From positions 6,990 to 70,989 of the forward strand of contig CAVUCE010000015.1 in the NCBI GenBank assembly GCA_963739985.1: a stretch of DNA of 64,000 bases. The letters run 5' to 3'. A program made the position numbers and the translations under genes. This DNA is from an uncultured Ignavibacteriales bacterium (lineage in GTDB: Bacteria > Bacteroidota > Ignavibacteria > Ignavibacteriales > Ignavibacteriaceae). Shown in pieces: positions 35,697 to 58,575 of this stretch; the stretch's first letter is position 1, and the number at the start of each line of letters is the position of its first letter. The notes under the pieces are model-generated. The model was not told the origin of the DNA. It saw only the letters and a list, made by a program, of their open reading frames with translations, and did not search any database.

Positions 35697-36338
35697 TTGA
35701 AGGTTAAGGATATGGCGAAAAATTTTGTATCTAATGATGATGTTACAGTAAGAATGTTTAAAAGTCCTTATATGGAAGCCCTATCAAAAGTACATCCTTC
35801 GGTTCCGGTAATTATATATGTACCGGTAATTAGTTATTTTATTTACAGAGCTATTGCGATTTTTGATCTTACTTTTTCTAATATTTTATTATTTATTCTG
35901 ATTGGTATAGTTGTTTGGACTTTTACCGAATATACTCTTCATCGTTTTATATTTCATTACAAGCCAAAATCGAATTTTGGCCGGAAGATACATTTTATCT
36001 TTCACGGAGTTCACCACGATTATCCAAATGACTCAAGAAGATTGGTGATGCCGCCGTCGGTTAGTATTCCACTAGCGACGCTGTTTTATTTCTTATTTTT
36101 AGAAATTATTGGCGTTAGATTCGTAGCACCTTTTTTTGTCGGATTTTTAACCGGATATCTGTTTTATGATCTGACACATTACGCTGTACATCATTTCCAA
36201 ATTCATAGTAAATTTTGGCTCACTTTGAAGAAACATCATATGAGACATCACTATCAAGATGAAAGTAAGGGGTTTGGAGTTAGCTCGCCGATCTGGGATG
36301 ATATAATTGGTACTAATTTTTCTAAAACCAATAAGTGA
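35697..36338 (+). CDS. fatty acid hydroxylase / sterol desaturase-family membrane di-iron enzyme
   Basis: Histidine boxes HRFIFH, HGVHHDYP and HHMRHHY. The TTG start comes from the track; ATG at 35712 is an alternative. Confidence 0.75.
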   Translation: MKVKDMAKNFVSNDDVTVRMFKSPYMEALSKVHPSVPVIIYVPVISYFIYRAIAIFDLTFSNILLFILIGIVVWTFTEYTLHRFIFHYKPKSNFGRKIHFIFHGVHHDYPNDSRRLVMPPSVSIPLATLFYFLFLEIIGVRFVAPFFVGFLTGYLFYDLTHYAVHHFQIHSKFWLTLKKHHMRHHYQDESKGFGVSSPIWDDIIGTNFSKTNK

Positions 36339-36757
36339 AAATCCAAATGGAAAATTCAGGGGACGGTAAAATAATATCAAATTCAAAGAAGAAGATATTA
36401 GTTATAGAAGATAATATTGAATCACAATTGATCTTTAAAATTTATTTGCGTGAAGATTATGATGTCGAAATAGTAGATACCGGAGAAAAAGGACTTGATA
36501 AGCTACAAAATTGTGACTATGATCTGTTAGTTTTAGATGTTCACTTACCAGGCAAATATGATGGTATGAAAGTTTTAATGGAACTTAAAAAATTAGAAAA
36601 TAAAAACAGTAAAATACCGACGGTTGTAGTTACAGCTTATGCAATTCAAGGATATAAAGAAAATTTTCTGTCTCACGGCGTACATTCATTTTTAACAAAA
36701 CCCATTGATAAGAACACGCTTTTAGCGGAAATACAAAAATCATTAATACTAAACTAG
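36335..36757 (+). CDS. single-domain response regulator (CheY-like receiver)
   Basis: ILVIEDN ... DLLVLDVHLPG ... VVVTA ... FLTKP give the receiver Asp and Lys positions. The GTG start overlaps the upstream stop; ATG at 36347 is an alternative. Confidence 0.85.
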   Translation: MKIQMENSGDGKIISNSKKKILVIEDNIESQLIFKIYLREDYDVEIVDTGEKGLDKLQNCDYDLLVLDVHLPGKYDGMKVLMELKKLENKNSKIPTVVVTAYAIQGYKENFLSHGVHSFLTKPIDKNTLLAEIQKSLILN

Positions 36758-36825: not shown

Positions 36826-38475
36826 ATGCATAAATTGAAATTCTTATTAATAATCTCTCTCGCACTTCTATCATTCAGTTGCTCAGCGCAGATAACACAT
36901 CCTGTATATATTCGTGCTAACCAGGTTGGATATCTACCAAACGATTTTAAAACCGCGGTTGCATTCTCAAAATATCCTGTAGAGGAAAATCAGTTTAATA
37001 TCCTTAATAAAAAAGACGGGGAAGAAGTATATTCCGGAAAATTAGAAATTAGTAATGAAAATTATGGGGACTTCAAATATTGCTATACTCTGAACTTTTC
37101 TAGGCTTAATAAAAATGGTAATTATGAAATAGAAATTGGAAAACAAAAATCTTTTGCCTTTTCAATTGGGAATAAAATATTTGACAATATCGCCGATTCA
37201 TTATTATTGTTCTTCAAAGTTCAGAGATGCGGACCTACTAATCCATTAATGCATAAACCATGTCACTTATCTGATGTTTCAAGATTAGTTGGTGATCCAA
37301 ATTATCATGGTGCCGTTGATGTAACCGGAGGATGGCACGATGCAGGTGACTATATCAAGTTTCTTTCAACTACCGCTTATGCAACATACATGATGATATT
37401 TTCTTACGAATTTGATCCTGTTAAATATGGTTTTGATGATAATCATGATGGTGTCCCTGATCTTTTAGCTGAAGCAAAAATAGGACTTGATTGGTTGTTG
37501 CGATGTAACTATTCCAAATACAAATTGATTACTCAAGTTCAAAATTTGAGAGATCATGATGTGGGTTGGAGAATGCCATCTGCAGATACTTTACGTTATG
37601 ATAGGCCAGGCTACGTTAGTATGGGTAAAAATCAAATCGGAATTTTTACCGCCGTTATGGCTATTGCTTCTAGAGTTTGGGCCGATAAATTTCAAAAGTA
37701 TGATTTCTCGCAGAAATGTCTTCAAGCTGCTGAAAATATTTATTCTATTAGAAATGATGTTCCTAATATCGATAGCACTAAATCCGGATTTTATCAGGAT
37801 AATGCTTTCTGGGGAAAAATGGCATTAGGCGCAGTTGAACTTTATACAACTACTAAAAAACATGAATATTTTATCGATGCTAAAACTTACGCAGATAGCG
37901 CCGGTTCTGATTATTGGTGGAGTTGGGGAAATATAAATTCACTTGCAGATTATAAAATTGCAAAATATGAACCGAGATTCGCCGATTACATTTTAAATAA
38001 TCTTAAAGTTTTTAATGCTAAAAAGGATTCTTCTGTTTTTAGAGAAGGGATGCCTTATGTTTGGGGAACGACAAATTCTTTGCTTGGTATATCATTGCAA
38101 GCGATATTATACAAAACTTTAACCGGTAGTCATAGGTTTGATTCGCTTGAAGTTTATGAAAGAGATTATGTACTAGGAAGAAATCCCTGGGGCTTGTCTT
38201 TTATATATAATATTGGAACTATGTTTCCAAAACATTTGCATAACCAAATTGCTTATTTTCATAATGGATATTTACCCGGTGGTTTATCTGCCGGTGCAGC
38301 ACCTGAAAATATACTTAAGGAGTTTGATATTAAACGATCAAATAATAAGTACACTATGTTTAATACGGATTCCATAAAATATTATGATGATAGAAACGAT
38401 TATATAACAAATGAACCGACGATAACCGGAAATGCTACTGCAATTTTTGTATACGGTTATTTTAGTAATAGATAG
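36826..38475 (+). CDS. secreted glycoside hydrolase family 9 enzyme with an N-terminal Ig-like domain
   Basis: Signal peptide, then the GH9 signature DVTGGWHDAGDYIKF, and C-terminal YYDDRNDYITNEPTI. Confidence 0.85.
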   Translation: MHKLKFLLIISLALLSFSCSAQITHPVYIRANQVGYLPNDFKTAVAFSKYPVEENQFNILNKKDGEEVYSGKLEISNENYGDFKYCYTLNFSRLNKNGNYEIEIGKQKSFAFSIGNKIFDNIADSLLLFFKVQRCGPTNPLMHKPCHLSDVSRLVGDPNYHGAVDVTGGWHDAGDYIKFLSTTAYATYMMIFSYEFDPVKYGFDDNHDGVPDLLAEAKIGLDWLLRCNYSKYKLITQVQNLRDHDVGWRMPSADTLRYDRPGYVSMGKNQIGIFTAVMAIASRVWADKFQKYDFSQKCLQAAENIYSIRNDVPNIDSTKSGFYQDNAFWGKMALGAVELYTTTKKHEYFIDAKTYADSAGSDYWWSWGNINSLADYKIAKYEPRFADYILNNLKVFNAKKDSSVFREGMPYVWGTTNSLLGISLQAILYKTLTGSHRFDSLEVYERDYVLGRNPWGLSFIYNIGTMFPKHLHNQIAYFHNGYLPGGLSAGAAPENILKEFDIKRSNNKYTMFNTDSIKYYDDRNDYITNEPTITGNATAIFVYGYFSNR

Positions 38476-38768: not shown

Positions 38769-39536
38769 TTGTATGGAAAAATGAATGGAGCAACGTTGAA
38801 GAAGATAAAATTATTGAATTCAGGTTTGCCAATGATAGATAAAGCTTGGGGAGGATTTTATCGGGCAGCAACATATTTAATGATCGGACAAAGAAAATCC
38901 GGTCGAACATCTTTAGCATTACAGTTTGCAAAAGAATGTGTTAAACAAAAAGAAGTTTGTCTTTACATAACAAATATTCGTCCTAAAGAATTATTAATTC
39001 ACGCCTCTTCGATAGATTTTGATCTTCAAGAAGCAATGAATAAAAACGAAGTTATCGTTGTAAAAGTTGTTCCACCTACAGGAACTGAAATTTCAACAAA
39101 CCCAGATCAATTTTTAGCAGAATATTTAAAAGATATTATTACAGTTGTAGATGAATATCAGCCAACCAAAATTGTATTTGATGAATTAACTCCTTTTATC
39201 GAGTTTGAAAATCCCGACTACTTACATGATGTTTTTGCCCAGACAATTGAAGAAATTGAAGATATGGGAATCACTAACTTTTTCGTCTTAAGCGATCCGG
39301 CTACCGAACCAGCAGTTGAATTAATTGAATCATTAGTCAGTGCATCAACAGGTGTAATTTATTTGAAGAAAGATGATGAAGGAACCAGTGGAGAGATAAC
39401 TATTACTCCCAATGTTGGTCATCCCGAGGGTAAGTTTAAAGCAAAATACAAAATTGAACCTTATATAGGAATGACATTTGATGAGAACAAAGTTCCGGAA
39501 TCACCGAGCAAAAATACTTCTATTAAAGAGTTATAA
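38769..39536 (+). CDS. KaiC/RecA-like P-loop-fold protein with degenerate Walker A (GQRKSGRT)
   Basis: LPMIDKAWGGFYRAATYLMIGQRKSGRTSLALQF... aligns by eye to the KaiC/RadA pattern G.D...GG...G...L..G..G.GKT...LQF, but has Arg in place of the P-loop Lys. A Walker-B-like KIVFDELTPF is present. It is a paralog of the N-terminal half of 39586-40842. Confidence 0.65.
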   Translation: MYGKMNGATLKKIKLLNSGLPMIDKAWGGFYRAATYLMIGQRKSGRTSLALQFAKECVKQKEVCLYITNIRPKELLIHASSIDFDLQEAMNKNEVIVVKVVPPTGTEISTNPDQFLAEYLKDIITVVDEYQPTKIVFDELTPFIEFENPDYLHDVFAQTIEEIEDMGITNFFVLSDPATEPAVELIESLVSASTGVIYLKKDDEGTSGEITITPNVGHPEGKFKAKYKIEPYIGMTFDENKVPESPSKNTSIKEL

Positions 39537-39585
39537 AATTTTAAGTATATGATCAAATATTATTTAATAATAGATAAGTTATAAG

Positions 39586-40842
39586 ATGCGACAAAAGATA
39601 CAAATCAGCCGTTCTGGAATAATGCTAGTAGATAAAGCATGGGGAGGATTTTACCGTGGAGGCACCTATTTACTAATCGGTCCTCGAAAATCCGGTAGAA
39701 CTTTACTTAGCCTTCAGTACGCGATGGAAAGCGCACGCCAAAAGGAAGTCTGCTTATACTTTACGAGTATGCGTCCAAAGGACTTGATGATCCAAGCAGC
39801 CTCAATAGACTTTGATCTTCAGCATTATATGAACCAAAACTTGATCATAGTAGTAAGAGTGGCGCCACCATCAGACTTATACGAGGTAGGCAACCCGGAT
39901 GAGTTTTTGGTAGAGTATCTTAACGACATAGTCACAGTAGTAGACCAGTACCAGCCAAATAAAATAGTATTTGACGAGTTAACGCCATTTATCGGTTTCA
40001 GTAACGTAGATCTTTTAGAGGAAGTCTACTCCAGAACAGCCGAAACGATAGAGGATATAGGTATAACAAGTTTATTTACGGTAGGAGATCCGGCCACACC
40101 GGCAGCCAGTCATATAGTAGACGCATTGGCCAATCACTCCACCGGCATCATATACCTAAAGAAGTCGGAAGAAGACGAGTTGACTGAAATGGGCAGAACG
40201 CAAGGCGGGAAGATGATCATAACGCCAAACATCGGCCATACAGAAGGAAAGTTCAGCTCAAATTATTATATAGAGCCGTACCGCGGCATCACTGTAGATT
40301 ACGGAAATGAAGAAAGTAATAGTTACGGAGAATCTTCCGGTAGCGTCACACAGTCCCGCAAGTATAAATCGCTAGCAGAGATAGATTTGCCGAACGAGCA
40401 AGTATCTTTCTCTAACATATATACCATGAACGATTTCAATTTAATCTTAAATAACCAGATAGCCTTGTATAAGAGTACCGGTCAGATATTTACAATAATC
40501 TCATTCCGATTGGATTTTACGGCAGAGAAGTTGGGATTATTGACTATCAGCCAGTTACAGAACGCAGTTCGTTTATCCACGGATAAGAAGGATAAGATCT
40601 GCATAATCAACGATAAGGTTATAGTTTTAGTAACGAAGGATGACCCCAAGGGTATCAACTTCTTTATAGGTAAGATAAAGAGCAATCTTCCGAACAGCGA
40701 ACCGGGTTACTTGAGCCGTGTTCTTCAGTATATTTCTGTTTACGCAGTAAAGGTAGATGATCGAGTTCAGAGTGCAGAAGACATATTGGGTCAGTTATTA
40801 TCGGAAGATATCCCGGAAAAAAACAAATTAGGATTTCACTAG
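39586..40842 (+). CDS. KaiC/RecA-like (degenerate P-loop GPRKSGRT) fused to a degenerate GGDEF-like C-terminal domain, copy 1
   Basis: The N-terminal half resembles 38769-39536. The C-terminal roughly 130 aa (MNDFNLILNNQIALYKSTGQIFTIISFRLDF...RLSTDKKDKICIINDKVIVLV...FIGKIK) follows the GGDEF-domain secondary-structure and hydrophobic pattern, with INDK where GGDEF would sit. Confidence 0.6.
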   Translation: MRQKIQISRSGIMLVDKAWGGFYRGGTYLLIGPRKSGRTLLSLQYAMESARQKEVCLYFTSMRPKDLMIQAASIDFDLQHYMNQNLIIVVRVAPPSDLYEVGNPDEFLVEYLNDIVTVVDQYQPNKIVFDELTPFIGFSNVDLLEEVYSRTAETIEDIGITSLFTVGDPATPAASHIVDALANHSTGIIYLKKSEEDELTEMGRTQGGKMIITPNIGHTEGKFSSNYYIEPYRGITVDYGNEESNSYGESSGSVTQSRKYKSLAEIDLPNEQVSFSNIYTMNDFNLILNNQIALYKSTGQIFTIISFRLDFTAEKLGLLTISQLQNAVRLSTDKKDKICIINDKVIVLVTKDDPKGINFFIGKIKSNLPNSEPGYLSRVLQYISVYAVKVDDRVQSAEDILGQLLSEDIPEKNKLGFH

Positions 40843-41651
40843 AAGAAAGCTGCAATGAAACAAGTAATACTATCATCACTGCTACTTATACTAATTCTAG
40901 GGGGAATAGGACAGCGTGTTTACGGCCAGATAAATCCGGAAGCGATGAGAAATGAAGCCGAGCAAGAGATGAAGTTCGGCAGATACGGGGAGTCAATAGA
41001 TTTGTTGAACCGCTATATTTCAGCCCGTCCACAGAAGGCAGATGGTTATAATTTACGGGGAATCTGTTATGAGAAGCGAGAGCAGTTTGAGTTGTCTGTA
41101 TATGATTATCGATCGGCTCGAAAACTTGATCCAAGTAACAAAGAAATCCGGAAGAATTTAGAGAGAGCGACAAGTACTTGGTATAAGTTGCTATATAATA
41201 ATATAGAGGGATATAAGAGGGAAATAGCGATAAACCCAAATAAGGCAGAGAATTATTTAGAGATAGGTAAAGCATATAAGAATTTAGGCAAGTGGGAAGT
41301 AGCCGAGCAATGGTATGATCAGTATTTGGCGAGGGAACATGCATCACCGGATGAGATAATAAGGTATACGGAGATACTGGCGAAGAATAATCATATAGCC
41401 AAGGGTTGGCCGATACTGAAGAAGTATACAGATGAATATCCGGAAGACCAGCGGTTGTGGTCACGTTACGGATATTTTTCAATGTGGTTGGGAAAGAATA
41501 AGATAGCGATAAAGGCATTTGAGAATGCCTTGGCATTGAAGCCATATTTTAAGGAAGCACAAGACGGATTAGATCAAGCCAAGGGTAAGGGATATATTTA
41601 TACTGTTAACGATACTGCTTCAAGATATAATTATGGGATGCCTGTTCCGGC
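39586..41651 (+). repeat. direct repeat copy 1 (2,066 bp)
   Basis: Offset 5,735 nt to copy 2. The encoded 418-aa proteins are identical except R9/H9 (g39611 vs a45346). The intergenic 12 nt and the first 265 codons of the next gene are identical. Antisense ORF translations are also identical, which implies near-100% nucleotide identity. Confidence 0.9.
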
Positions 41652-43758
41652 AAAATACAAACAGTATGCTATTGATAAATATTATTCAATATTAAAAAAG
41701 CGCCCTGATGATAATGAAATTAGATTCAAATTAGTAAAGGAATTAGTAAAAGCGGAAAGATATTCAGAAGCCAATGATGAATTACAAACTTTAATTCAAG
41801 ATACAAGTAAAACTGAATATCAAGACTATTACACTAATTTTAAATCTCTCAGGGATAGTGTCTTTGAGAAGAGAATAACCGACTATGCAGCCAAGTTTAA
41901 AGCAGATCCACATAATAAAGAAGTAGCAATAAAACTTGCTGATGCTTATGGCCATACATATGATTTTGACAGTTCAATGGAAGTATTGTCAGAATATCTT
42001 AAAGGAATTCCTGAAAATAAAGAATTAGATGTAAGATTTTTATATGCTAAATACGCATCATGGAATTACGAATGGAACGAAGCTAGGGTGACTCTTGATA
42101 ACTTATTAAAATATGATCCTAATAATTTAGATTATCAATTACTCAGTGCCCAAATAACTGCCTGGAATGTAACTGAATCTAAACAAGAAGAAATTGATAA
42201 TGCCAGTAGATATATAAAAAATGTTCTTGCAAAAGATCCTAATAATATGCTTGCTTTGATTGCTGAAGTATATCTAAAATCCGGACAGGGTGACATGGTC
42301 TCAGCCAAAAAAGTTGTGGATCAGTTAAAAACTTTATATCCTGAAAAGAAAGAAATAACAGCTATTCAAAATTATTATAATACGCGACTTCTTGTTGCTA
42401 AAGAAAAAGAAATACTTAATATGCGAGGAAAAGCCGGTAAACTATATCTGGCCGGCAATTGTAATGATGCTTTGAAAATTTATGACGATATTTTCGAAAG
42501 GGAAAAAAATCCAAGCAGAGACCTGATTCTTGAATACGCTTCGGTTAGTTCATGTGCAAAAGCGTATACTCAAGCAATAGATTTATACAATCAGGCATTA
42601 AATTTAAGCTATGATAGTGAAACTGCTAGTTTACTTGCTCTAAATTATTTATGGTCCGGTGATACAACTAAATGCTTAATTATGTTACAAGATTTGCAAG
42701 AAAAAAATCCATCAGATTTTCGTACTAATTATTATTTAGGTGATATTTACGAACGAACTAAACAACCTGAAAAAGCTATAGCAATATATGATAGACTCTT
42801 GTCTGATTCTTTAAGAAGCAATTTAGATTCAACACAAATTGCAACATTAGAAACTAGATTAGGTTATCTTAACACCGGATTCGGAGGAGGCTTTGGAAGG
42901 TTTCCTGCATACGTTGCACTTTCACCGATGGCATCTTATTATGCAGATAACCAAGATTTTAGATTATCAGATATTGGTGGGCGGTTAGAGGTAGGAATTA
43001 CCAGTTTCTTAACAATAGGTGCTTCATATTCCCGAACCGGATTAACTAATAAATATTATACAAGATATTTAAGCTCTAACAAGTGGCTTGCATATTTAAG
43101 ATTGGTTAAAGGATTAACAGCTTCAGTCGGCTTCGGAACAATTCATACCGTTGGCTATTCTCCAAAAAACATCGCTGATGCTTCATTGAAGTACCAGGGT
43201 GTTGAAGATAGATTGACTACTTCATTATCTTATGAAACAACAGACGGAAGACTAGCTTTATATTCACCTTATATATTAGATAAAGATTACAGAGTAAACA
43301 TTGTTAGATTTAATATTGATTATTTATTCAGATCAGGTTTTAAGGTATTAGCTAATTATCAACACCTTTCAATAAGCGATAATAATAGCGGAGATAATCT
43401 CCAATTCAGATTAGGTAAATCGCTATACAAAGATTTGTTTATCGGATATGAATATTTGTATTCCAATTTTTCGTTCATGTCTTCATACTATTACTCCCCG
43501 GCAAGTTTTAGTGCACATAGCATTTGGTTTGATTGGAGGCCGTTAAACGAAGACAATATAAAATTAGATTTTGGCGGAAAGTTCGGTTATGTTCCGCAGA
43601 GCGATTACTTGCTTAGAGAAGGATTTGGGCAAATAACCTATAAACCACTTCCTATATTAAATATTGTAGCGAGAATTTCAGCAGCAAGTTCTTATCGATA
43701 TGATGGAAGTTATAACTATTTATCTGGTTTAATTTCGGCATATATCAGCTTGTTTTAA
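40855..43758 (+). CDS. outer-membrane polysaccharide export protein A: TPR region plus C-terminal beta-barrel (PgaA/BcsC/PelB-like)
   Basis: Signal peptide, about 600 aa of TPR-like repeats (ADGYNLRGICYEKREQFELSVYDYRSARKLDPSN...). The C-terminal roughly 300 aa shows an alternating hydrophobic beta-strand pattern ending ...SAYISLF, an OMP-type terminal Phe. Confidence 0.65.
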   Translation: MKQVILSSLLLILILGGIGQRVYGQINPEAMRNEAEQEMKFGRYGESIDLLNRYISARPQKADGYNLRGICYEKREQFELSVYDYRSARKLDPSNKEIRKNLERATSTWYKLLYNNIEGYKREIAINPNKAENYLEIGKAYKNLGKWEVAEQWYDQYLAREHASPDEIIRYTEILAKNNHIAKGWPILKKYTDEYPEDQRLWSRYGYFSMWLGKNKIAIKAFENALALKPYFKEAQDGLDQAKGKGYIYTVNDTASRYNYGMPVPAKYKQYAIDKYYSILKKRPDDNEIRFKLVKELVKAERYSEANDELQTLIQDTSKTEYQDYYTNFKSLRDSVFEKRITDYAAKFKADPHNKEVAIKLADAYGHTYDFDSSMEVLSEYLKGIPENKELDVRFLYAKYASWNYEWNEARVTLDNLLKYDPNNLDYQLLSAQITAWNVTESKQEEIDNASRYIKNVLAKDPNNMLALIAEVYLKSGQGDMVSAKKVVDQLKTLYPEKKEITAIQNYYNTRLLVAKEKEILNMRGKAGKLYLAGNCNDALKIYDDIFEREKNPSRDLILEYASVSSCAKAYTQAIDLYNQALNLSYDSETASLLALNYLWSGDTTKCLIMLQDLQEKNPSDFRTNYYLGDIYERTKQPEKAIAIYDRLLSDSLRSNLDSTQIATLETRLGYLNTGFGGGFGRFPAYVALSPMASYYADNQDFRLSDIGGRLEVGITSFLTIGASYSRTGLTNKYYTRYLSSNKWLAYLRLVKGLTASVGFGTIHTVGYSPKNIADASLKYQGVEDRLTTSLSYETTDGRLALYSPYILDKDYRVNIVRFNIDYLFRSGFKVLANYQHLSISDNNSGDNLQFRLGKSLYKDLFIGYEYLYSNFSFMSSYYYSPASFSAHSIWFDWRPLNEDNIKLDFGGKFGYVPQSDYLLREGFGQITYKPLPILNIVARISAASSYRYDGSYNYLSGLISAYISLF

Positions 43759-43861: not shown

Positions 43862-45124
43862 ATGGTTCGTATTTCGAATATTCGGATGTTATTAACGATT
43901 TTAATATTTTTTTGTTTAGCACTTCCTTCTAGCCTAATTAAAGCAAAAGATAATAACAATTCATCTGAAAAATTGAATAATAATTCCGCAGCATATTACA
44001 GTGGGTACGGAAAGAAAGTCCCAATAACCGGTAACGTATCAGAATTAAAAAACTTTTTTGACGCATTAAGTACCACAAAACAAGATAAAATTAGAATAGC
44101 ACATTACGGAGATTCAGTAATATGGGGAGATATTATTACTGATGATTTGAGACAAGATTTTCAAGATAAATTCGGCGGCCACGGTGCAGGTATCCAATCT
44201 GTTTGTTCCGACGATATAAAAGTTAAAGAAACTACAAAACACACTTTCTCTGATAATTGGAAATGGAATTCTCTCTTTACCTCAAACATTGAAAATTTTC
44301 CAATCGGAATTGCGGCTACCTCGGCAACTCCAAAAGGGAATAGCGCATGGATTAAGTACGAAGCTACAAATTTTAGAGAATCTTCAAACTCATTTAAAAT
44401 TGCAAAATTATTTTACAATAACGTAAATGCTGGTGCAAGTATTAAATATTCATTTAACAATGGTCCCGAACAAACAGCTAAACTGAAAGCCGGCAAGAAT
44501 CTTCAAGAATTTGAGATGAACTCATCCGGCAGCGCAAGATCATTAAAAATTACGTTTGAAAATTGCCAGGGTGGTTACTTTTATGCCGTAAGCTTAGAAG
44601 ATGGCAATGGAGTTTATGTTGACAACTTTCCGTTGAGAGGTAACTCGGGAGCTTCATTATTAGATTTTAATGAAGATTTAATGAAAGACTTTAACAAAAA
44701 ATTGAACTATAAACTAATTATTCTAAACTATGGTTTAAATATTGCTTCGGCTGAACAAACTAACTATGAATGGTACAAGCACAAAATGATCCGAGTAGTT
44801 AAATCTTTTCAAAAGAATTTTCCTGATGCTAGTATTTTATTCATGGGAGTTGGAGATAGAAGCATAAAAAAGGGGTCAAGATTTGTTTCTGATCCGGCAG
44901 TTGAAAGATTAATATCGGTACAAAAAGAAATTGCTGAAAAAACGAACGTTGCATTTTGGAATTTATTTGAGGCAATGGGCGGTAAAAATTCGATGACTGA
45001 CTGGGTACAAGCTCGTCCGGCTTTAGGTTATGTTGATTATTCACATTATACTCCTGAAGGCGGAAAATTAGTTGCCGATCTTTTAACTGAAGCATTGATG
45101 GATGCTTATAAAAATTCGCATTAA
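43862..45124 (+). CDS. secreted SGNH/GDSL-fold protein, paralog of 27194-28657
   Basis: IRIAHYGDSVIWGDIITDDLRQDFQDKFGGHGAGI compares with IRIAHFGDSEIEGDLITAELRKKLQSKYGGEGVGY. Similarity continues to the C-terminus (VAFWNLFEAMGGKNSMTDWV vs IAFWNLFNSMGGKNSMGTWV). Confidence 0.65.
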   Translation: MVRISNIRMLLTILIFFCLALPSSLIKAKDNNNSSEKLNNNSAAYYSGYGKKVPITGNVSELKNFFDALSTTKQDKIRIAHYGDSVIWGDIITDDLRQDFQDKFGGHGAGIQSVCSDDIKVKETTKHTFSDNWKWNSLFTSNIENFPIGIAATSATPKGNSAWIKYEATNFRESSNSFKIAKLFYNNVNAGASIKYSFNNGPEQTAKLKAGKNLQEFEMNSSGSARSLKITFENCQGGYFYAVSLEDGNGVYVDNFPLRGNSGASLLDFNEDLMKDFNKKLNYKLIILNYGLNIASAEQTNYEWYKHKMIRVVKSFQKNFPDASILFMGVGDRSIKKGSRFVSDPAVERLISVQKEIAEKTNVAFWNLFEAMGGKNSMTDWVQARPALGYVDYSHYTPEGGKLVADLLTEALMDAYKNSH

Positions 45125-45320: not shown

Positions 45321-46577
45321 ATGCGACAAAAGATACAAATCAGCCATTCTGGAATAATGCTAGTAGATAAAGCATGGGGAGGATTTTACCGTGGAGGCAC
45401 CTATTTACTAATCGGTCCTCGAAAATCCGGTAGAACTTTACTTAGCCTTCAGTACGCGATGGAAAGCGCACGCCAAAAGGAAGTCTGCTTATACTTTACG
45501 AGTATGCGTCCAAAGGACTTGATGATCCAAGCAGCCTCAATAGACTTTGATCTTCAGCATTATATGAACCAAAACTTGATCATAGTAGTAAGAGTGGCGC
45601 CACCATCAGACTTATACGAGGTAGGCAACCCGGATGAGTTTTTGGTAGAGTATCTTAACGACATAGTCACAGTAGTAGACCAGTACCAGCCAAATAAAAT
45701 AGTATTTGACGAGTTAACGCCATTTATCGGTTTCAGTAACGTAGATCTTTTAGAGGAAGTCTACTCCAGAACAGCCGAAACGATAGAGGATATAGGTATA
45801 ACAAGTTTATTTACGGTAGGAGATCCGGCCACACCGGCAGCCAGTCATATAGTAGACGCATTGGCCAATCACTCCACCGGCATCATATACCTAAAGAAGT
45901 CGGAAGAAGACGAGTTGACTGAAATGGGCAGAACGCAAGGCGGGAAGATGATCATAACGCCAAACATCGGCCATACAGAAGGAAAGTTCAGCTCAAATTA
46001 TTATATAGAGCCGTACCGCGGCATCACTGTAGATTACGGAAATGAAGAAAGTAATAGTTACGGAGAATCTTCCGGTAGCGTCACACAGTCCCGCAAGTAT
46101 AAATCGCTAGCAGAGATAGATTTGCCGAACGAGCAAGTATCTTTCTCTAACATATATACCATGAACGATTTCAATTTAATCTTAAATAACCAGATAGCCT
46201 TGTATAAGAGTACCGGTCAGATATTTACAATAATCTCATTCCGATTGGATTTTACGGCAGAGAAGTTGGGATTATTGACTATCAGCCAGTTACAGAACGC
46301 AGTTCGTTTATCCACGGATAAGAAGGATAAGATCTGCATAATCAACGATAAGGTTATAGTTTTAGTAACGAAGGATGACCCCAAGGGTATCAACTTCTTT
46401 ATAGGTAAGATAAAGAGCAATCTTCCGAACAGCGAACCGGGTTACTTGAGCCGTGTTCTTCAGTATATTTCTGTTTACGCAGTAAAGGTAGATGATCGAG
46501 TTCAGAGTGCAGAAGACATATTGGGTCAGTTATTATCGGAAGATATCCCGGAAAAAAACAAATTAGGATTTCACTAG
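45321..46577 (+). CDS. KaiC/RecA-like plus degenerate GGDEF-like protein, copy 2
   Basis: 418 aa, identical to 39586-40842 except H9 for R9. Confidence 0.6.
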   Translation: MRQKIQISHSGIMLVDKAWGGFYRGGTYLLIGPRKSGRTLLSLQYAMESARQKEVCLYFTSMRPKDLMIQAASIDFDLQHYMNQNLIIVVRVAPPSDLYEVGNPDEFLVEYLNDIVTVVDQYQPNKIVFDELTPFIGFSNVDLLEEVYSRTAETIEDIGITSLFTVGDPATPAASHIVDALANHSTGIIYLKKSEEDELTEMGRTQGGKMIITPNIGHTEGKFSSNYYIEPYRGITVDYGNEESNSYGESSGSVTQSRKYKSLAEIDLPNEQVSFSNIYTMNDFNLILNNQIALYKSTGQIFTIISFRLDFTAEKLGLLTISQLQNAVRLSTDKKDKICIINDKVIVLVTKDDPKGINFFIGKIKSNLPNSEPGYLSRVLQYISVYAVKVDDRVQSAEDILGQLLSEDIPEKNKLGFH

Positions 46578-47386
46578 AAGAAAGCTGCAATGAAACAAGT
46601 AATACTATCATCACTGCTACTTATACTAATTCTAGGGGGAATAGGACAGCGTGTTTACGGCCAGATAAATCCGGAAGCGATGAGAAATGAAGCCGAGCAA
46701 GAGATGAAGTTCGGCAGATACGGGGAGTCAATAGATTTGTTGAACCGCTATATTTCAGCCCGTCCACAGAAGGCAGATGGTTATAATTTACGGGGAATCT
46801 GTTATGAGAAGCGAGAGCAGTTTGAGTTGTCTGTATATGATTATCGATCGGCTCGAAAACTTGATCCAAGTAACAAAGAAATCCGGAAGAATTTAGAGAG
46901 AGCGACAAGTACTTGGTATAAGTTGCTATATAATAATATAGAGGGATATAAGAGGGAAATAGCGATAAACCCAAATAAGGCAGAGAATTATTTAGAGATA
47001 GGTAAAGCATATAAGAATTTAGGCAAGTGGGAAGTAGCCGAGCAATGGTATGATCAGTATTTGGCGAGGGAACATGCATCACCGGATGAGATAATAAGGT
47101 ATACGGAGATACTGGCGAAGAATAATCATATAGCCAAGGGTTGGCCGATACTGAAGAAGTATACAGATGAATATCCGGAAGACCAGCGGTTGTGGTCACG
47201 TTACGGATATTTTTCAATGTGGTTGGGAAAGAATAAGATAGCGATAAAGGCATTTGAGAATGCCTTGGCATTGAAGCCATATTTTAAGGAAGCACAAGAC
47301 GGATTAGATCAAGCCAAGGGTAAGGGATATATTTATACTGTTAACGATACTGCTTCAAGATATAATTATGGGATGCCTGTTCCGGC
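45321..47386 (+). repeat. direct repeat copy 2 (2,066 bp)
   Basis: See copy 1. Identity begins at the ATG and ends after ...cctgttccggc. The two sequences then diverge (caaaataca vs tcctgctta) but both stay in frame. Confidence 0.9.
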
Positions 47387-49463
47387 TCCTGCTTATTCAT
47401 ATCCTATTGATAAGTTTTATCATAAGTTAAAATCTAATCCGGATGATACCGATACACGATTAAAGCTAGTTAAAGCTTTATATAAAGCGAATAGATTAGA
47501 AGAGGCATATCAACAAGTACAAATTTTATCTAAAACTCCGGTCGATTCAACACTGGCATTTCAGGAATTAAAAGATCAGATATTATCATACCGCGAGAAA
47601 TATTATGCGCAAAAAATTGAAGAATATAAAACCAAGCTAAAAGATAATCCGCATGATAAGAAAGCTGTTCTCATGTTAGGTACATATTATGCCAATCTTA
47701 GGGATTACGATAAAGCGACTGAATTGTATAACGACTATCTAAGTTTTGATCCCGGTGATAAAGAAATTATTTATAGAAGTGCACAAGTTGCTGCCTGGAA
47801 TCATGATTTTTCTACGGCTATTGATAAGATGGATGAACTTTTAAAAATGCAGCCTAATAATTTAAAGTATCAAATGTTTAGAGGACAATTGGCAGTTTGG
47901 ACAAGTCGAGATTTAGATTTAGGTGAAAAATATTTAACAAATGTGGAAAAAAGTGATTCGAGTAATTTAAACCTTTTAGTTTCACTTGGATCATTATACT
48001 TGCAGAAACAAAATTTTGATCTTTCGCAAAGTTACATTAAAAGAGCAAAAGCAATCGATCCTAATGAACCTAATCTTAACAAATTAGAATCTGATTATGT
48101 ATTCCAGCAATTAAGGGCACAGCAAGAAAAATTATTTAAGATTCTTGAAGAAGGCCGCAAATTAGCTATGGACGGTGATTGTGAAGCTGCATTGCCTAAG
48201 TACGAAGAATACATGTCGAAAGCTGAACCTAATCGTTTAATAAGAAAAGAATATGCAGACGCAAATGCTTGCGCACATAATTATGCTAAGGCAATAAGTA
48301 TTTATGATGATCTTTTAGGAAATCAGTATGATTATGACATTGACTTACAAAGAGCTAAAGTTTACTACTATATGGGAGATTCAACAAAGGCTCTTTCAGC
48401 CTTTCAGAAACTTGCGGAAGATAACCCTGGTGAGTATGATGTTAATTTGTATTTAGGTGATTCATATACCAAAATGCATGAGTATTCAAAAGCTCGAAGT
48501 GTATATGATAACATTTTAGAAAACAATGATGATAGCTTACGAACTGCTGTCGTGGAGCAAAGGTTATCGTGGTTGCCTGTTACAGGCTTTGCCGGAATAA
48601 TAGATTCTTTCCCCAGTTATGTGTTACTTACTCCAAGTGCAACTTTTTATGGAGATAATTTAGGATTCAGATATAACACACAAGGATTACGAGCCGATTT
48701 AGGAATAGCTCAATTTTTATCAATTGGAGCTGAAGGTAGCAGAGGAACGTTAGCCTCGGATAATTTGAGAGAAAATTTCACTCAATTTAAGTGGAATATT
48801 GGTTTTAGATTTACTCCGGAAATTACTGCCGGTATCGGATTTGGAACTGAGAATTTTGGATTAGCAAATGATCAAAAGAATATAGCTGATGGATATTTCA
48901 AATACGATGTTCCAAAGCATTATGGGGTAAAAGTTAATTTCTCTATGATGGATGCTTCTCAAATCCTTTATTCTCCATTCCTCGTTGGAGTTAGAATGGA
49001 TGCTAAGGCTGTGAATTTTGGAGGTTATTACAGATTCAAAGCCGGGTTTAATTTCTCCGCAAAGTATACATATATCGATGTTTCCGACGGTAATAAAGGT
49101 GGAAATCTTGAGTTGCGTGTTGGAAAATATTTTATGCCGAATTTTTTGTTTGGGTATGAATTTTATAACTCAAATTTTGATTTCAATTCTTATCTCTACT
49201 TTTCACCGCAAAATTATTCATCGCATAGTTTGTTTGCGGATTGGAATATAATTGGAAACGAAAAATTGCAACTAGATGCCGGAGGTAAGATCGGTTTGAT
49301 CACAAATAGTAGCTATATTTTACGTCAAGGTTTTATCTCAGCAACTTATAAAGTTATTAAAAGCTTATCAGTTCAAGCATATTTAGCAGCTGGAAGTAGC
49401 GTACAAGATCAGTCGGGATATAATTCTTTGGCATTTACACTTGCGGCTTACTGGACTCTTTGA
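46590..49463 (+). CDS. outer-membrane polysaccharide export protein B: TPR region plus C-terminal beta-barrel, paralog of 40855-43758
   Basis: The first 265 aa are identical to protein A. The remaining roughly 690 aa are colinear but only about one-third identical by eye, with the same TPR-then-barrel layout. Confidence 0.65.
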   Translation: MKQVILSSLLLILILGGIGQRVYGQINPEAMRNEAEQEMKFGRYGESIDLLNRYISARPQKADGYNLRGICYEKREQFELSVYDYRSARKLDPSNKEIRKNLERATSTWYKLLYNNIEGYKREIAINPNKAENYLEIGKAYKNLGKWEVAEQWYDQYLAREHASPDEIIRYTEILAKNNHIAKGWPILKKYTDEYPEDQRLWSRYGYFSMWLGKNKIAIKAFENALALKPYFKEAQDGLDQAKGKGYIYTVNDTASRYNYGMPVPAPAYSYPIDKFYHKLKSNPDDTDTRLKLVKALYKANRLEEAYQQVQILSKTPVDSTLAFQELKDQILSYREKYYAQKIEEYKTKLKDNPHDKKAVLMLGTYYANLRDYDKATELYNDYLSFDPGDKEIIYRSAQVAAWNHDFSTAIDKMDELLKMQPNNLKYQMFRGQLAVWTSRDLDLGEKYLTNVEKSDSSNLNLLVSLGSLYLQKQNFDLSQSYIKRAKAIDPNEPNLNKLESDYVFQQLRAQQEKLFKILEEGRKLAMDGDCEAALPKYEEYMSKAEPNRLIRKEYADANACAHNYAKAISIYDDLLGNQYDYDIDLQRAKVYYYMGDSTKALSAFQKLAEDNPGEYDVNLYLGDSYTKMHEYSKARSVYDNILENNDDSLRTAVVEQRLSWLPVTGFAGIIDSFPSYVLLTPSATFYGDNLGFRYNTQGLRADLGIAQFLSIGAEGSRGTLASDNLRENFTQFKWNIGFRFTPEITAGIGFGTENFGLANDQKNIADGYFKYDVPKHYGVKVNFSMMDASQILYSPFLVGVRMDAKAVNFGGYYRFKAGFNFSAKYTYIDVSDGNKGGNLELRVGKYFMPNFLFGYEFYNSNFDFNSYLYFSPQNYSSHSLFADWNIIGNEKLQLDAGGKIGLITNSSYILRQGFISATYKVIKSLSVQAYLAAGSSVQDQSGYNSLAFTLAAYWTL

Positions 49464-49783: not shown

Positions 49784-51187
49784 ATGGAATTAAATCAAAA
49801 AGTTAAAAAAGCAACAATCATTCTTGATAATATTCAGGATGACCCAAAAGAAGAATTGAGTGAAAAGAAATACCTAAGAAGAATTTTAATAACAGGTGCT
49901 ATTTCATTACTTTTACTTTTAGTCATCATATACACATTGCCTTTAACAGTCCTTTCTATAAAGTCTCTATTAGAGTATGCAACCATTGTTGCACTTGTGA
50001 TCTTTCTCTTTGTATTATTGTTTAGATACTTCGCAATTTTGGTGCTCGCTTATCTTTACATTAACCAATACACGTATAAAAAAGTAGAAGGTTTTTTCCC
50101 GTTTGTATCCATTATTGTACCGGTTTATAATGAAGAAAAGGTTATTCATGATTCTATTGATTCATTGTTACAACTTAACTACTCCAATTACGAAATTATA
50201 ATTGTTAATGATGGCTCAACCGATGGTACAAAGGAAGCTGCTTCAACATTAGTCGGTTATCATAAGGGCAAAAACGACGATAACATAAAAGTTTCACTAA
50301 TCAATAAACCAAACGGCGGTAAATCAAAAGCTCTGAATGCAGGAATCAGATATTCGAAAGCAGAGATAGTTCTTTGCATGGATGGTGACTCCCAGTTATC
50401 TCCGGATTCTTTAAGATTAGCTGTAAGACATTTTACTAATCCGGAAATTGGCGCTGTTGCTGGTAACGTGAAAGTTTTGAATCGTGGTAATTTATTTACA
50501 GATCTTCAGGCACTTGAATATATTGAAGGTTTGAATATGGCAAGAAGTGCTCAAAGTTATATTAGACTAGTAAACATTATTCCGGGACCTATCGGATTAT
50601 TTAGAAAAAAAGCTATTGAAGAGGCAGGATTTTATTCTAGCGACACATTTGCTGAAGACGCTGATTTAACTCTTAAAGTTTTAGCAAACGGCTGGAAAAT
50701 ATATTACGAACCAAATTCAATTTCGTTTACAGAAGCCCCGGCAAAATTACAACAGTTGTTAAAACAAAGATACAGATGGACACGCGGTATTTTGCAGTCA
50801 ATTAGAAAACATAAAAAATTAATGTTGAACCCAACTGTAAACTTTGGCGATACCTTTATTTTATGGACTATGGTTTATGAAGCTTTAATTTGGCCTACAA
50901 TGAATATTGCAGCTAACTTGTTCTTTATAATTGCTGCTTTGGCATTCGGATTTTCATCTTTGATTTTCTTCTGGTGGGCTGGCTTAGCGCTTTTGGATTT
51001 TGTAACAGCATTGTATTGCGTTGCTGTTGAAAAGGAAGAATTTAGATTAGTCGGATATTCAATCATTTATAGAATGTTTTTCATTCTCATCATAGATATT
51101 TGTAAAGCCATGTCAACCATTGAAGAATTTCTTGGTATTAGAATGACATGGGGAAAACTTGAAAGAGTTGGATCGGCAAAAGCATAA
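49784..51187 (+). CDS. processive family-2 glycosyltransferase (PgaC/IcaA/NodC-type polysaccharide synthase)
   Basis: N- and C-terminal TM helices flank a GT-A domain with SIIVPVYNEE, NDGSTDGT, NGGKSKALN, MDGDSQL, EDADLT and the processivity motif QRYRWTRG. Confidence 0.85.
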   Translation: MELNQKVKKATIILDNIQDDPKEELSEKKYLRRILITGAISLLLLLVIIYTLPLTVLSIKSLLEYATIVALVIFLFVLLFRYFAILVLAYLYINQYTYKKVEGFFPFVSIIVPVYNEEKVIHDSIDSLLQLNYSNYEIIIVNDGSTDGTKEAASTLVGYHKGKNDDNIKVSLINKPNGGKSKALNAGIRYSKAEIVLCMDGDSQLSPDSLRLAVRHFTNPEIGAVAGNVKVLNRGNLFTDLQALEYIEGLNMARSAQSYIRLVNIIPGPIGLFRKKAIEEAGFYSSDTFAEDADLTLKVLANGWKIYYEPNSISFTEAPAKLQQLLKQRYRWTRGILQSIRKHKKLMLNPTVNFGDTFILWTMVYEALIWPTMNIAANLFFIIAALAFGFSSLIFFWWAGLALLDFVTALYCVAVEKEEFRLVGYSIIYRMFFILIIDICKAMSTIEEFLGIRMTWGKLERVGSAKA

Positions 51188-51222: not shown

Positions 51223-51732
51223 ATGGAACTTATTCCTATTCTATCAACAATCATTCTCGTTGCTACAATAAGCACCTTCTTGTTGGCGATCGGAGCATAC
51301 ATCCTCTATAAAGTTAGAGAAAGAAGAGGACAAGTAGTCACAGCTCCGGAACCAAGTTCAGTGAAGGCAGAGCTTATAACTCCGGCAACAGCACCAGAAC
51401 AAGGTCGCCCTGCTCCAACAGAGCAGCCAATTGTGGTACAACAACCAATGCGTCAGCCTGCATATGCGCAAGCTGGTCAGTCGGTTGATCAAAATGTTAG
51501 ACCAAGTTACACTGTCAAAGAAAAAACTTACTACGAACCTGCTTATGCTCAAACTGGAAGAAAATCTAGAACTACTCAACCGCAAAGAGGTTATCAAGGA
51601 CCCAGCTATGCATCGCAAGGACAGGAAAATAGTAAGGAGACCGGTAGAGAAGCTCGTTTTCTACAATATACAACTGAAGGCTATGTATCAGCAAAAGAAG
51701 ATAAAAACGCAGGAGCATTAAAGTGGCGGTAA
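51223..51732 (+). CDS. single-TM protein with a Pro/Gln/Ala-rich low-complexity tail (occupies the PgaD-like position)
   Basis: N-terminal helix ILSTIILVATISTFLLAIGAYILY followed by RERR, then a disordered-looking tail. A GAGAGG lies upstream of the ATG. The stop overlaps the next gene by 10 nt. Confidence 0.5.
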   Translation: MELIPILSTIILVATISTFLLAIGAYILYKVRERRGQVVTAPEPSSVKAELITPATAPEQGRPAPTEQPIVVQQPMRQPAYAQAGQSVDQNVRPSYTVKEKTYYEPAYAQTGRKSRTTQPQRGYQGPSYASQGQENSKETGREARFLQYTTEGYVSAKEDKNAGALKWR

Positions 51733-58000: not shown

Positions 58001-58575
58001 AAGATGAAGAAGTCAGCAGTTCTAACTCTGATGATTTTGAATATATAGAATCAAAATTAAATCACGAAATTCAGATTCCTGAAGAAAATGACGATAATTC
58101 CATTGAAGAAGATCAGGAAATAAACGAAGAACCCGTTGCTGATGATAAAGAGACAGAGATTCCTTACTATTCTCCGAAAAATATCAATCGCCTAGATTTG
58201 TCAAATCTTAATTGTCTTTATATAGAAGATCAAGTTGATTCTCAGATTCTCTTTAAAGTTCAAATGAAGGAACTAAAAGAGATTAAATTTGCAGTAAGTT
58301 TTGAAGAAGCTTTACCGCTTCTAGATACCGAACATTTTGATTTTATTGTTATGGACATAAATTTACAAGGTGAGTATAATGGTTTGGATGCGCTAAAGAT
58401 TGTTCATAAAATGCCTGAGTATCAAAATATTCCTATCATTGCGGTTACGGCTTATGTTTTACCGGGTGACAAGGAAAAATTCATTGCAGTCGGGTTTAAT
58501 GATTTTATTTCAAAGCCAATTTTTAAAGAAAAAATGGTTGATTCACTAGAAAAAATTTTCCTACCTCAAATCTAA
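55099..58575 (+). CDS. multi-PAS hybrid sensor kinase-like protein with an acidic linker and C-terminal receiver
   Basis: GTG start and several PAS-like segments. H-box SMFHEILTPINVILGF is present, followed by a region lacking clear N/G1/G2 ATP-lid boxes. Next comes about 110 aa of Asp/Glu-rich linker, then a receiver (LYIEDQ ... FIVMDINLQG ... IIAVTAY ... FISKP). Confidence 0.7.
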   Translation: MNSLQAENNININLFSALNRNIKDPFIVLDHSGNILSLNEQAESLFNLSGNRSNFYKLFDSQTSDKIKKLIEQIISETNFISENIILSLKSGTEINSEITLSCYQEENELFVFCSIKKIQSKLEPAGTTEVKVVTQELAKIIRNKSVLSIIEDIKSLYPFTFIGKEKVLKGANKLEELFWIKDSKGIYVLINKALSKGLGLRTTLVEGKSASSFIPAYLVGFYEAIETYIRDSVNVIMIEGIPIKGISAYENYQTIEIPLVDSDNNLIATIGIAQKKISKNDTEWNEILFGSKLDMLVNWPEKVAILDKDGNFKHGSKDFCKLFSLEIKNLRENNFRNSLPENLIQKVNEFLESSVLEEKFEINSSAELEINSKEFLEVFLNKIYDKENDLVGFSVVIKEKQNFDDVENFINSRGRMFEILIQNNPEPIFIYDTENLRFLEVNDSALSLYGYRKDEFLQMDLTDLYTPEDIQTLLDSSSSTKEGTFSGPFRHKKKDGSSVFVEISKITFTFQDREAHFNIIKDVSANLDLEKKLQLFKSAFNNTDDVIFITDNTGIIKFVNQAALKKLDKSKNDLENISFTSLVKDEERGSINSSIFKSHLKDEVTIFTELKSGKDEFINVELNATPILDYNEEIDSYTILCKIQVEPVEPKEIIKEVIKEVVVEKEVPSKTPVTNADNSAFLSSMFHEILTPINVILGFVEELTDGISDKNKDQKEAADIINQNRERLLSTMNSVLEYSNIQQNKIDLNVETVAITQVIDQLQQDISDIVGSRNIEFGYGKISSSLSFETDRNKFQSLISQLFRIVTHISREKKIYFSAYQLNDDSFIIAIKDNYNSISRWLMENLIGLFTKGEAGLSKDFGIPKLTVQLATALLKILKGNVDTIQNDNEKVECGFIFPININEYADFNSLRSSEFESDTQEDIEENISEEVFEESVQNVTEDELDSEEQIDHEEEPDYSFPDFSDEDEEVSSSNSDDFEYIESKLNHEIQIPEENDDNSIEEDQEINEEPVADDKETEIPYYSPKNINRLDLSNLNCLYIEDQVDSQILFKVQMKELKEIKFAVSFEEALPLLDTEHFDFIVMDINLQGEYNGLDALKIVHKMPEYQNIPIIAVTAYVLPGDKEKFIAVGFNDFISKPIFKEKMVDSLEKIFLPQI

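Follow-up and report, generated by a model that had tools for sequence, protein, structure and literature searches.

Synthase-dependent exopolysaccharide systems such as those for cellulose, Pel, poly-N-acetylglucosamine (PNAG) and alginate are textbook targets of cyclic di-GMP (c-di-GMP), and RecA-family proteins in which the Walker-A Lys has been mutated to Arg typically bind ATP and hydrolyze it poorly. Among the regulators described so far, BcsE combines a degenerate RecA-like domain with degenerate receiver (REC) and GGDEF domains and acts on a synthase-dependent system (PMC7439463), and FlaH/ArlH is a KaiC-like protein with tight ATP binding, no detectable hydrolysis and a nucleotide requirement for partner binding (PMC5019145). 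Here we have analyzed three genes, A, B1 and B2, from a 64,000-nucleotide stretch of DNA of an uncultured Ignavibacteriales bacterium (assembly GCA_963739985.1, contig CAVUCE010000015.1, positions 6,990 to 70,989 of the forward strand), which we call the window. Their products, together with their relatives, form an undescribed clade of single-domain KaiC/RecA-fold proteins from Ignavibacteria and Rhodothermales. All three carry Arg in place of the Walker-A Lys and are located in a polysaccharide locus. No description of this KaiC-like family was found in the literature, a paper on a DUF2652 cyclase-like protein (PMC4886424) being irrelevant to it. In the databases its members are named 'circadian clock protein KaiC' or 'RAD55 family ATPase', which is misleading for more than 1000 proteins.

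The KaiC-like domain and its nucleotide site

Open reading frame (ORF) A (38769-39536, forward strand) encodes 255 residues when read from a TTG codon and 251 residues when read from the ATG at 38781, and the latter start aligns best with the N-terminus of B in BLASTP and MAFFT. B1 encodes 418 residues, the first 238 of which match A with 57% identity over 236 residues in BLASTP, close to the 55% that had been estimated by eye in the original prediction, a reading of A and B1 from their letters. Their N-terminal pattern had been assigned to the KaiC/RadA type, and the Pfam profile PF06745 (KaiC) indeed scores 76.4 bits for A and 74.4 bits for B1 at a gathering score of 26.6. Both stay far under the cut-off of the NCBIfam KaiC equivalog (NF006799, 53.7 and 50 bits at a cut-off of 408) and also under that of the ArlH equivalog (NF052589, 28.6 and 21.3 bits at a cut-off of 215). 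The third copy B2 differs from B1 in one residue (R9H), and these three are the only family members in the whole genome.

As originally read, the P-loops are G-Q-R-K-S-G-R-T in A and G-P-R-K-S-G-R-T in B1, and HMMER, hhalign and MAFFT all align them on the KaiC motif GxxGxGK[TS]. In alignments to real KaiC domains Arg38 falls at the position of the Walker-A Lys and Asp130 at that of the Walker B Asp, the latter residue being part of the motif KIVFDELTPF that had been noted in both paralogs. The prediction had also considered that a different, intact P-loop might exist elsewhere, but a second motif of the form [AG]xxxxG[KR][ST] was not found in A, B1 or B2. The KaiC Glu pair (T-F-E-E / A-Y-E-E) has been replaced by T-S-M in B1 and by T-N-I in A with a deletion of one residue, again in agreement with the first reading, and the trans Lys/Arg finger of KaiC (LKxRG) reads T-P-N-I-G-H in the family (MAFFT sequence alignment only). 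When the members were aligned by MAFFT to two genuine KaiC proteins with both domains (L031 from a genome of the same phylum and the representative P0268), not one of them, the Lys types included, showed the Glu pair or the trans finger. For position counts we aligned 234 N-terminal domains to a family hidden Markov model, and acidic remnants at the Glu-pair site were seen as Asp at position 61 in 4 and as Asp or Glu at position 62 in 21 of these 234 domains.

What has been retained by the clade is the backbone of the P-loop (G32, S/T36 and G37), a basic residue at position 38 and the acidic pair of Walker B. Within the Ignavibacteria clade G32, K35, S/T36, G37, R/K38, T39 and D130 are invariant or nearly so; Thr39 is kept there, and Lys35 is invariant there but unconserved outside Ignavibacteria. 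As judged from the alignments, R63 in the whole family and K35 in Ignavibacteria appear to be basic residues that the pocket has gained.

A word-indexed search returned 1216 relatives, and an exhaustive search of 50%-identity representatives returned 843. Among the 120 nearest relatives, with identities of 60% or more, the P-loop reads G-x-[RHK]-K-[ST]-G-R-T in about 111 and GKT in 7, and a canonical GK[TS] is found in 15% of the members. In the 234 aligned domains the Walker-A Lys position is occupied by Arg in 191, by Lys in 35 and by another residue in 8 cases. Position 39 is Thr or Ser in 185 of them, position 63 is Arg in 194, position 130 is Asp in 189, Glu in 21 and Asn in 19, and the following position 131 is Glu or Asp in 219 (94%). 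The motif PN[IV]GH is present at the site of the KaiC finger in 157 of the 201 sequences that cover this segment. Furthermore, 70 columns of the N-terminal domain are invariant in 58 B orthologues, and 64 of these 70 are also kept in A.

The proteins from Rhodothermales are longer (400-700 aa), possess a Pro-rich linker and show the P-loop GRAASGR[GD]. The Arg is found in 22 of 24 Rhodothermales-type loci, with the Thr lost and the Walker B Asp often lost as well (Asn or Glu). A high-GC subgroup (P0224, P0254, P0262, P0263 and similar sequences) reads GRAGAGRS at the P-loop and VVIEDFTP at Walker B, and low-complexity sequence replaces the C-terminal part of its N-terminal domain, the PN[IV]GH region.

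To follow the history of Lys and Arg, we excluded the P-loop columns from the alignment of the 234 domains, reconstructed a FastTree phylogeny from the remainder and used real KaiC as the root; the tree contains many long branches. The Lys-type members are basal, some of them still acidic at one or both positions of the Glu pair, and Arg dominates two large clades. The K/R label changes 14 times on the tree with at least 4 changes forced by well-supported branches, compared with 29-35 changes for shuffled labels, and several Lys forms such as P0033 are nested at the tips of Arg clades. Even three genomes from the window organism's own family read GERK[TS]GKT (for example GERKTGKT). The idea of Arg as a specific requirement does not survive these 4 to 14 switches and the 35 Lys-type domains, and from the sequences the site seems to need a basic residue but not Arg specifically.

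In orthologues for which DNA was at hand, Arg is encoded by AGA (12), AGG (4), CGC (4), CGT (3) or CGA (2) and Lys by AAA (4) or AAG (1), AGA and AAA being one transition apart. This synonymous turnover across AGR and CGN codons in AT-rich genomes argues for purifying selection on Arg in most lineages. As the basal Lys-type members are also without the finger, the basic residue is a selected one in a site that had already lost catalysis, and the Lys-to-Arg change would thus have come after the loss of the catalytic residues. A chance origin is ruled out by the conservation of the Arg-type pattern across the family.

The original prediction had taken the shared substitution in two otherwise diverged paralogs as an argument for a selected, non-hydrolytic role. 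This argument fails, since nearly every member of the order carries Arg, which therefore predates the duplication into A and B and was inherited by both, so that the two are not independent witnesses. That the substitution is not the result of random decay is nevertheless borne out by a large and syntenic family which has kept the Arg. As for the absence of hydrolysis, ATP might still be turned over, since a different catalytic base might be provided by the conserved Glu that follows the Walker B Asp.

A degenerate GGDEF-fold domain and a pga-like locus

The AlphaFold2 (AF2) model of B (predicted local distance difference test, pLDDT, of 77) consists of a KaiC-fold domain (residues 1-239), a disordered linker of 36 residues (240-275, pLDDT below 50) and a compact C-terminal domain. 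A Foldseek search with the full-length model gave KaiC chains as top matches (E 3e-15), with a target-normalized TM-score of 0.78 for PH0186. As this search returned KaiC chains only and thereby masked the second domain, the C-terminal domain was modelled alone (pLDDT 84), and its top 50 Foldseek matches in the Protein Data Bank (PDB) were all GGDEF domains with a best E of 2.7e-5 and TM-scores of 0.55-0.65. The position of the GG[DE]EF motif reads NDKVI in B. In the region of the I-site we find R329-L-S-T-D333-K-K-D336, which gives DKKD, or RLSTD one residue out of register, and no RxxD was found five residues upstream of the motif position. With the C-terminal domain as query Pfam gave nothing at E up to 1 and no PF00990, and a PDB profile search gave chance matches to AP-2 beta only; remote family members do match PF17853 (GGDEF_2), always below threshold. 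According to the models, the C-terminal domain of B is thus predicted to be a GGDEF fold with a catalytically dead motif. The ancestral form of the family is B, with the KaiC-like domain joined by the linker to the dead GGDEF fold. The linker contains the short motif KYKSLAEID(L)P with Y260 invariant and L263 nearly invariant, which could be a docking peptide.

The genes are arranged in the order REC, GH9, A, B1, TPR-porin 1, SGNH, B2 and TPR-porin 2, followed by a family 2 glycosyltransferase (GT2), a small membrane protein, a CE4-like protein, an Fn3 lipoprotein and a PAS, histidine kinase and REC hybrid sensor (Table 1). A PgaC-like GT2, a TPR-porin, a CE4 protein and a small membrane protein are hence all present and syntenic in the locus. 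For the GT2 the PgaC equivalog scores 199 bits at a cut-off of 422 and PgaA 40.6 bits at a cut-off of 367, and no PgaD profile match was found in the locus; from its sequences the polysaccharide system would be classified as pga-like and not as pga. The order B, TPR-porin, GT2, small membrane protein and CE4-like protein was present in all five Ignavibacteriales loci that were read, one of them in a complete genome, and in two of the three that were read from other classes within the phylum. From a pattern scan of 185,579 species genomes we obtained 39 loci of at least 15 kb, from Rhodothermales, Ignavibacteria and Melioribacteraceae metagenome-assembled genomes, and in 30 of them the KaiC-like gene is located directly upstream of the GT2 gene set. 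This recurrent core order identifies the KaiC-like gene as the conserved first gene of a pga-like synthase-dependent operon. In a 200-genome sample of the phylum the 28 other carriers have one copy per genome, compared with three copies here.

Table 1. Features of the KaiC-like genes and of the surrounding polysaccharide locus (positions in the window).
Feature	Positions	Strand	Evidence
Stand-alone response-regulator receiver	36335..36757	+	PF00072
GH9 glycoside hydrolase, syntenic upstream neighbour	36826..38475	+	Pfam, synteny
Paralog A, stand-alone KaiC-like domain without GGDEF-fold domain	38781..39536	+	PF06745, identity to B1
P-loop of A, GQRKSGRT; Arg codon CGA at the Walker-A Lys position	38886..38909	+	alignments
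Paralog B1, KaiC-like domain, disordered linker and degenerate GGDEF-fold domain	39586..40842	+	PF06745, AF2, Foldseek
KaiC/RecA-fold domain of B1, residues 1-239	39586..40302	+	alignments, AF2, Foldseek
P-loop of B1, GPRKSGRT, residues 32-39; Arg38 codon AGA	39679..39702	+	alignments
T60-S61-M62-R63 of B1; S61 and M62 at the KaiC Glu-pair site	39763..39774	+	alignments
Walker B of B1, K-I-V-F-D130-E131	39961..39978	+	alignments
P214-N-I-G-H218 of B1, at the KaiC trans-finger (L-K-x-R-G) site	40225..40239	+	MAFFT
Disordered linker of B1, residues 240-275, with KYKSLAEID motif	40303..40410	+	pLDDT <50
Degenerate GGDEF-fold domain of B1 (predicted), residues ~276-410	40411..40815	+	domain model, Foldseek
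2,066-bp repeat, copy 1	39586..41651	+	alignment with copy 2, one mismatch
TPR and outer-membrane barrel export protein 1 (PgaA/BcsC-like)	40855..43758	+	profile matches, synteny
Secreted SGNH/GDSL-like protein	43862..45124	+	profile match
Paralog B2, near-exact copy of B1 (R9H)	45321..46577	+	alignment
TPR and outer-membrane barrel export protein 2	46590..49463	+	repeat alignment with copy 1
Processive GT2 synthase, no PilZ domain	49784..51187	+	NCBIfam PgaC/IcaA best match
Small membrane protein in PgaD position	51223..51732	+	gene order
CE4-like polysaccharide deacetylase protein	51723..53621	+	profile match
PAS, histidine-kinase and receiver hybrid sensor, end of the locus	55099..58575	+	profile match

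Several features of the locus deserve mention. B1 and B2 belong to a direct repeat of 2,066 bp with a single mismatch, the second copy of which spans 45321-47386. Its first nucleotides are exactly the ATG of B, and it extends in frame for 265 codons into the TPR-porin gene, and beyond it the two TPR-porin genes are diverged (~60% at the nucleotide level). This looks like a recent gene conversion or segmental duplication, and an assembly artefact is possible as well. The GH9 protein is secreted and has an Ig-like CelD_N domain, and in most Ignavibacteria loci its gene immediately precedes the KaiC-like gene; the Rhodothermales loci lack it. By analogy to BcsZ or the C-terminal domain of PgaB it may trim the polymer.

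Paralog A shows at most 62% identity to its nearest relative and is equidistant from all B-type proteins. We had considered an orthologous family of A proteins and rejected it, as no relative of A is closer than 62% and short paralogs elsewhere appear to be separate duplications. Upstream of B, other Ignavibacteria loci do contain short copies without the GGDEF-fold domain: in one assembly there are three copies of 264 aa (GPPRTGKT), 248 aa (GSHKSGRT) and 416 aa (GARKSGRT), and other assemblies have a Lys-type copy of 245-263 aa together with a long Arg-type copy. A REC gene accompanies the short paralogs in the window and in four further loci or assemblies (L046, L048, L091 and L094), and no stand-alone REC gene was found in about 17 single-copy Ignavibacteria loci. 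This small sample suggests that a short KaiC-like protein and a REC protein form an add-on input module.

Just one GGDEF-family gene is present in the genome; it is located outside the window (L040, C4:53627-54088) and encodes a transmembrane protein of 623 aa with two GAF domains and a degenerate GGDEF domain with the motif NEKVF. Its architecture recalls PelD and its dead motif resembles NDKVI of B. The sole GGDEF-family gene in five Ignavibacteriales relatives is an equally degenerate orthologue (DEKVF, EERTF, SDRVF and similar), and two Rhodothermia-type carrier genomes have no GGDEF-family gene. Among the ORFs of at least 100 aa in the window organism's genome none shows GG[DE]EF in the context of a GGDEF domain, the two motif matches being unrelated proteins, and neither EAL nor PilZ domains were found in this genome. 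A gene for the c-di-AMP cyclase DAC is present (C1:149098-149454). Judged by its gene content, the organism appears to be without c-di-GMP signalling altogether. As these genomes encode no functional diguanylate cyclase, EAL or PilZ protein, the signal read by B is presumably not c-di-GMP.

A proposed regulator of the synthase and its alternatives

With moderate confidence we propose that A and B are non-hydrolytic, ligand-binding regulators or scaffolds of the synthase. A non-hydrolytic role is the most economical one because KaiC's Walker-A Lys, Glu pair and trans finger have been lost jointly while the phosphate-binding backbone is kept. Binding of a phosphate ligand without a turnover of the KaiC type is suggested by the P-loop backbone, the obligatory basic residue, R63 and K35 together with the loss of base and finger, and by the Thr and the Walker B acid retained in the Ignavibacteria clade. 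As for the target, the place of the gene in the operon together with the dead GGDEF domain points to the synthase of GT2 and small membrane protein. Most of this functional reasoning is derived from the operon context and the GGDEF-fold domain, which go beyond the original prediction, as do the third copy B2 and the loss of the trans finger.

In the proposed mechanism the KaiC-like domain would bind a nucleotide or another phosphate ligand, with nil or very slow turnover, and the ligand-bound state would drive its oligomerization. The GGDEF-fold domain and the linker might dock B on the cytoplasmic face of the GT2/small membrane protein synthase, where B would switch or assemble the synthase, like BcsE in the case of cellulose or ArlH in the case of the archaellum motor. 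The copy without the GGDEF-fold domain, A, would probably co-assemble with B and couple it to the receiver protein and the hybrid kinase.

Some observations weigh against the non-hydrolytic regulator. Nucleotide binding by an Arg-type P-loop is an assumption, the link to the GT2 comes from gene order only, and the association of A with REC is seen in few loci, some of which are related. As Rhodothermales often lose the Mg-coordinating Thr and vary the Walker B Asp, binding of Mg-ATP would not be a property of the whole family, and in Rhodothermales Arg side chains of the protein itself, or another ligand, may occupy the pocket. Finally, K35, R63 and the acidic residue that follows the Walker B Asp might together make up an active site of a non-canonical type.

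A more far-reaching version, which we regard as tentative and rather doubtful, would see the fusion of a degenerate KaiC domain and a degenerate GGDEF domain as an independently evolved switch, convergent to BcsE, of a synthase that is free of PilZ and independent of c-di-GMP. Such a switch would read the nucleotide state, with ATP/ADP, c-di-AMP, (p)ppGpp or a UDP-sugar as candidate ligands of its non-hydrolyzing Arg-type P-loop, and in some lineages the short paralogs and the receiver might form a phosphorelay-controlled hetero-oligomer with the fusion protein. If true, this would represent a new regulatory logic for biofilm polysaccharide in bacteria without c-di-GMP.

The non-canonical site just mentioned leads to a quite different explanation, which we consider unlikely, namely that A and B are rewired but active ATPases or autokinases whose ATP turnover powers or times polymer secretion. 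Arg38 and Lys35 would then stand in for the Walker-A Lys, R63 would serve as a cis finger and Glu131 in the hhhhDE motif would act as the base, as in AAA+ and ABC proteins. The acidic position 131 (219/234), R63 (194/234), the invariant K35 and the kept Thr39 and Asp130 of Ignavibacteria as well as the 15% of members with a canonical GK[TS] would fit such an enzyme. However, all members including those of the Lys type have lost the Glu pair and the trans finger, K35 is unconserved outside Ignavibacteria, and a Lys-to-Arg change at this position cripples hydrolysis in RecA-family enzymes. Much of the Rhodothermales clade, which loses Thr39 and Asp130 yet keeps Arg38, also does not fit a conserved site for Mg-ATP hydrolysis.

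This loss of Thr and Asp with the Arg kept is the main unexplained point, and it keeps alive another explanation to which we assign the same low probability as to the rewired enzyme: a ligand-free structural module, in which Arg38, Arg63 and the Walker B acids close the pocket and the domain is only a platform for oligomerization. In the Rhodothermales clade Arg38 is better conserved than Thr39 or Asp130, and the acidic residue found at position 131 in 94% of the domains would be compatible with an internal salt bridge. There is also a precedent in the N-terminal RecA-like domain of BcsE, which is thought not to bind ATP and mediates oligomerization (PMC7439463). The full phosphate-binding set conserved in Ignavibacteria is, however, more than a structural plug needs, and a residue that alternates freely between Lys and Arg is more in keeping with contact to a phosphate than with one particular salt bridge.

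A c-di-GMP receptor of the BcsE/PelD/PssE/YdaK type, in which c-di-GMP bound at the I-site of the degenerate GGDEF domain activates the synthase, is what one might expect from a GGDEF fold encoded in a synthase-dependent exopolysaccharide operon, in an architecture that recalls BcsE (PMC7439463) and next to a GT2 without a PilZ domain of its own. Nevertheless we regard it as highly improbable, as the genomes are without catalytic GGDEF, EAL and PilZ proteins, the RxxD of the I-site is absent from B, Pfam gives no GGDEF or GIL match and the hhalign comparison with BcsE from E. coli yields a probability of 0.3%. That the genes are functionless, decaying remnants of a KaiC clock or a RadA-like repair gene would agree with the missing catalytic residues, but is refuted by the conservation data with near certainty, namely intact ORFs, 70 invariant columns over 58 orthologues, synonymous codon turnover at the Arg, strict synteny over two classes and the retention of duplicated copies.

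We see these proteins as probable dead-enzyme regulators of synthase-dependent polysaccharide systems, and the Lys-to-Arg detail on its own is modest. Ignavibacteria and Rhodothermales possess a pga-like system without c-di-GMP enzymes, and its operon is headed by a conserved fusion of two 'dead' nucleotide-enzyme folds. The identity of any ligand of the Arg-type P-loop would reveal how polysaccharide secretion can be switched without c-di-GMP. New in this analysis are the K/R history across the family, the finding that the finger has been lost, the inclusion of Rhodothermales, the lack of a c-di-GMP machinery and the link between short paralogs and REC.

Comparison with known systems

In its overall plan B recalls BcsE (PF10995/GIL), a cytoplasmic accessory protein which is likewise encoded with a synthase-dependent exopolysaccharide system and likewise carries an N-terminal degenerate RecA/KaiC-like domain and a C-terminal catalytically dead GGDEF domain. 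The N-terminal domain of BcsE is thought to drive head-to-tail oligomerization (PMC7439463). Homology of the two was tried and rejected: hhalign of the family against BcsE from E. coli K-12 gave a probability of 0.3% (E 0.23), and BcsE was found neither in the PDB profile search nor by Pfam. B also differs from BcsE in that it has no degenerate REC domain between the two modules but a disordered linker of 36 residues, its P-loop is near-intact with only Lys changed to Arg whereas the Walker A of BcsE is severely diverged, it has no RxxD I-site and its hosts have no c-di-GMP enzymes, and its partner synthase is PgaC-like and not BcsA.

FlaH/ArlH (PDB 4YDS) shares the single-domain KaiC fold with A and B and, itself an ATP-binding protein, uses its nucleotide state for oligomerization and partner binding without detectable hydrolysis (PMC5019145). 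The sequence match is weak, with E 1e-3 in the PDB profile search and 28.6 bits for the NCBIfam ArlH model. ArlH keeps the Walker-A Lys and has lost the Glu of Walker B, whereas A and B show the reverse with Lys changed to Arg and the DE kept. Moreover, ArlH is archaeal, encoded in the archaellum operon and without a GGDEF-fold domain, in contrast to the bacterial exopolysaccharide operon of A and B.

The best match in sequence and fold is KaiC itself, the ATPase and autokinase of the circadian clock (PF06745; PDB 2GBL, 7S65 and others), with a similar P-loop, Walker B and topology. A and B differ from it in having one KaiC-like domain and not the CI-CII tandem, in the Arg at the Walker-A Lys position, in the absence of the Glu pair and the trans finger and in a locus without kaiA or kaiB context.

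PelD, PssE and YdaK from the Pel, Listeria Pss and Bacillus Yda systems resemble B as cytoplasmic regulators with a dead GGDEF domain encoded in a synthase-dependent exopolysaccharide operon. They are anchored in the membrane, keep the RxxD I-site, read c-di-GMP and are not known to carry a KaiC-like domain.

Finally, RecA K72R and the Walker-A Lys-to-Arg mutants of Rad51, which are proficient in ATP binding and deficient in hydrolysis, share the substitution, its position and the fold with A and B. These are laboratory mutants of active enzymes, whereas the change in A and B is natural, found throughout the family and accompanied by the loss of other catalytic residues. The family described here would offer a natural, family-wide counterpart of the classic Walker-A Lys-to-Arg mutant.

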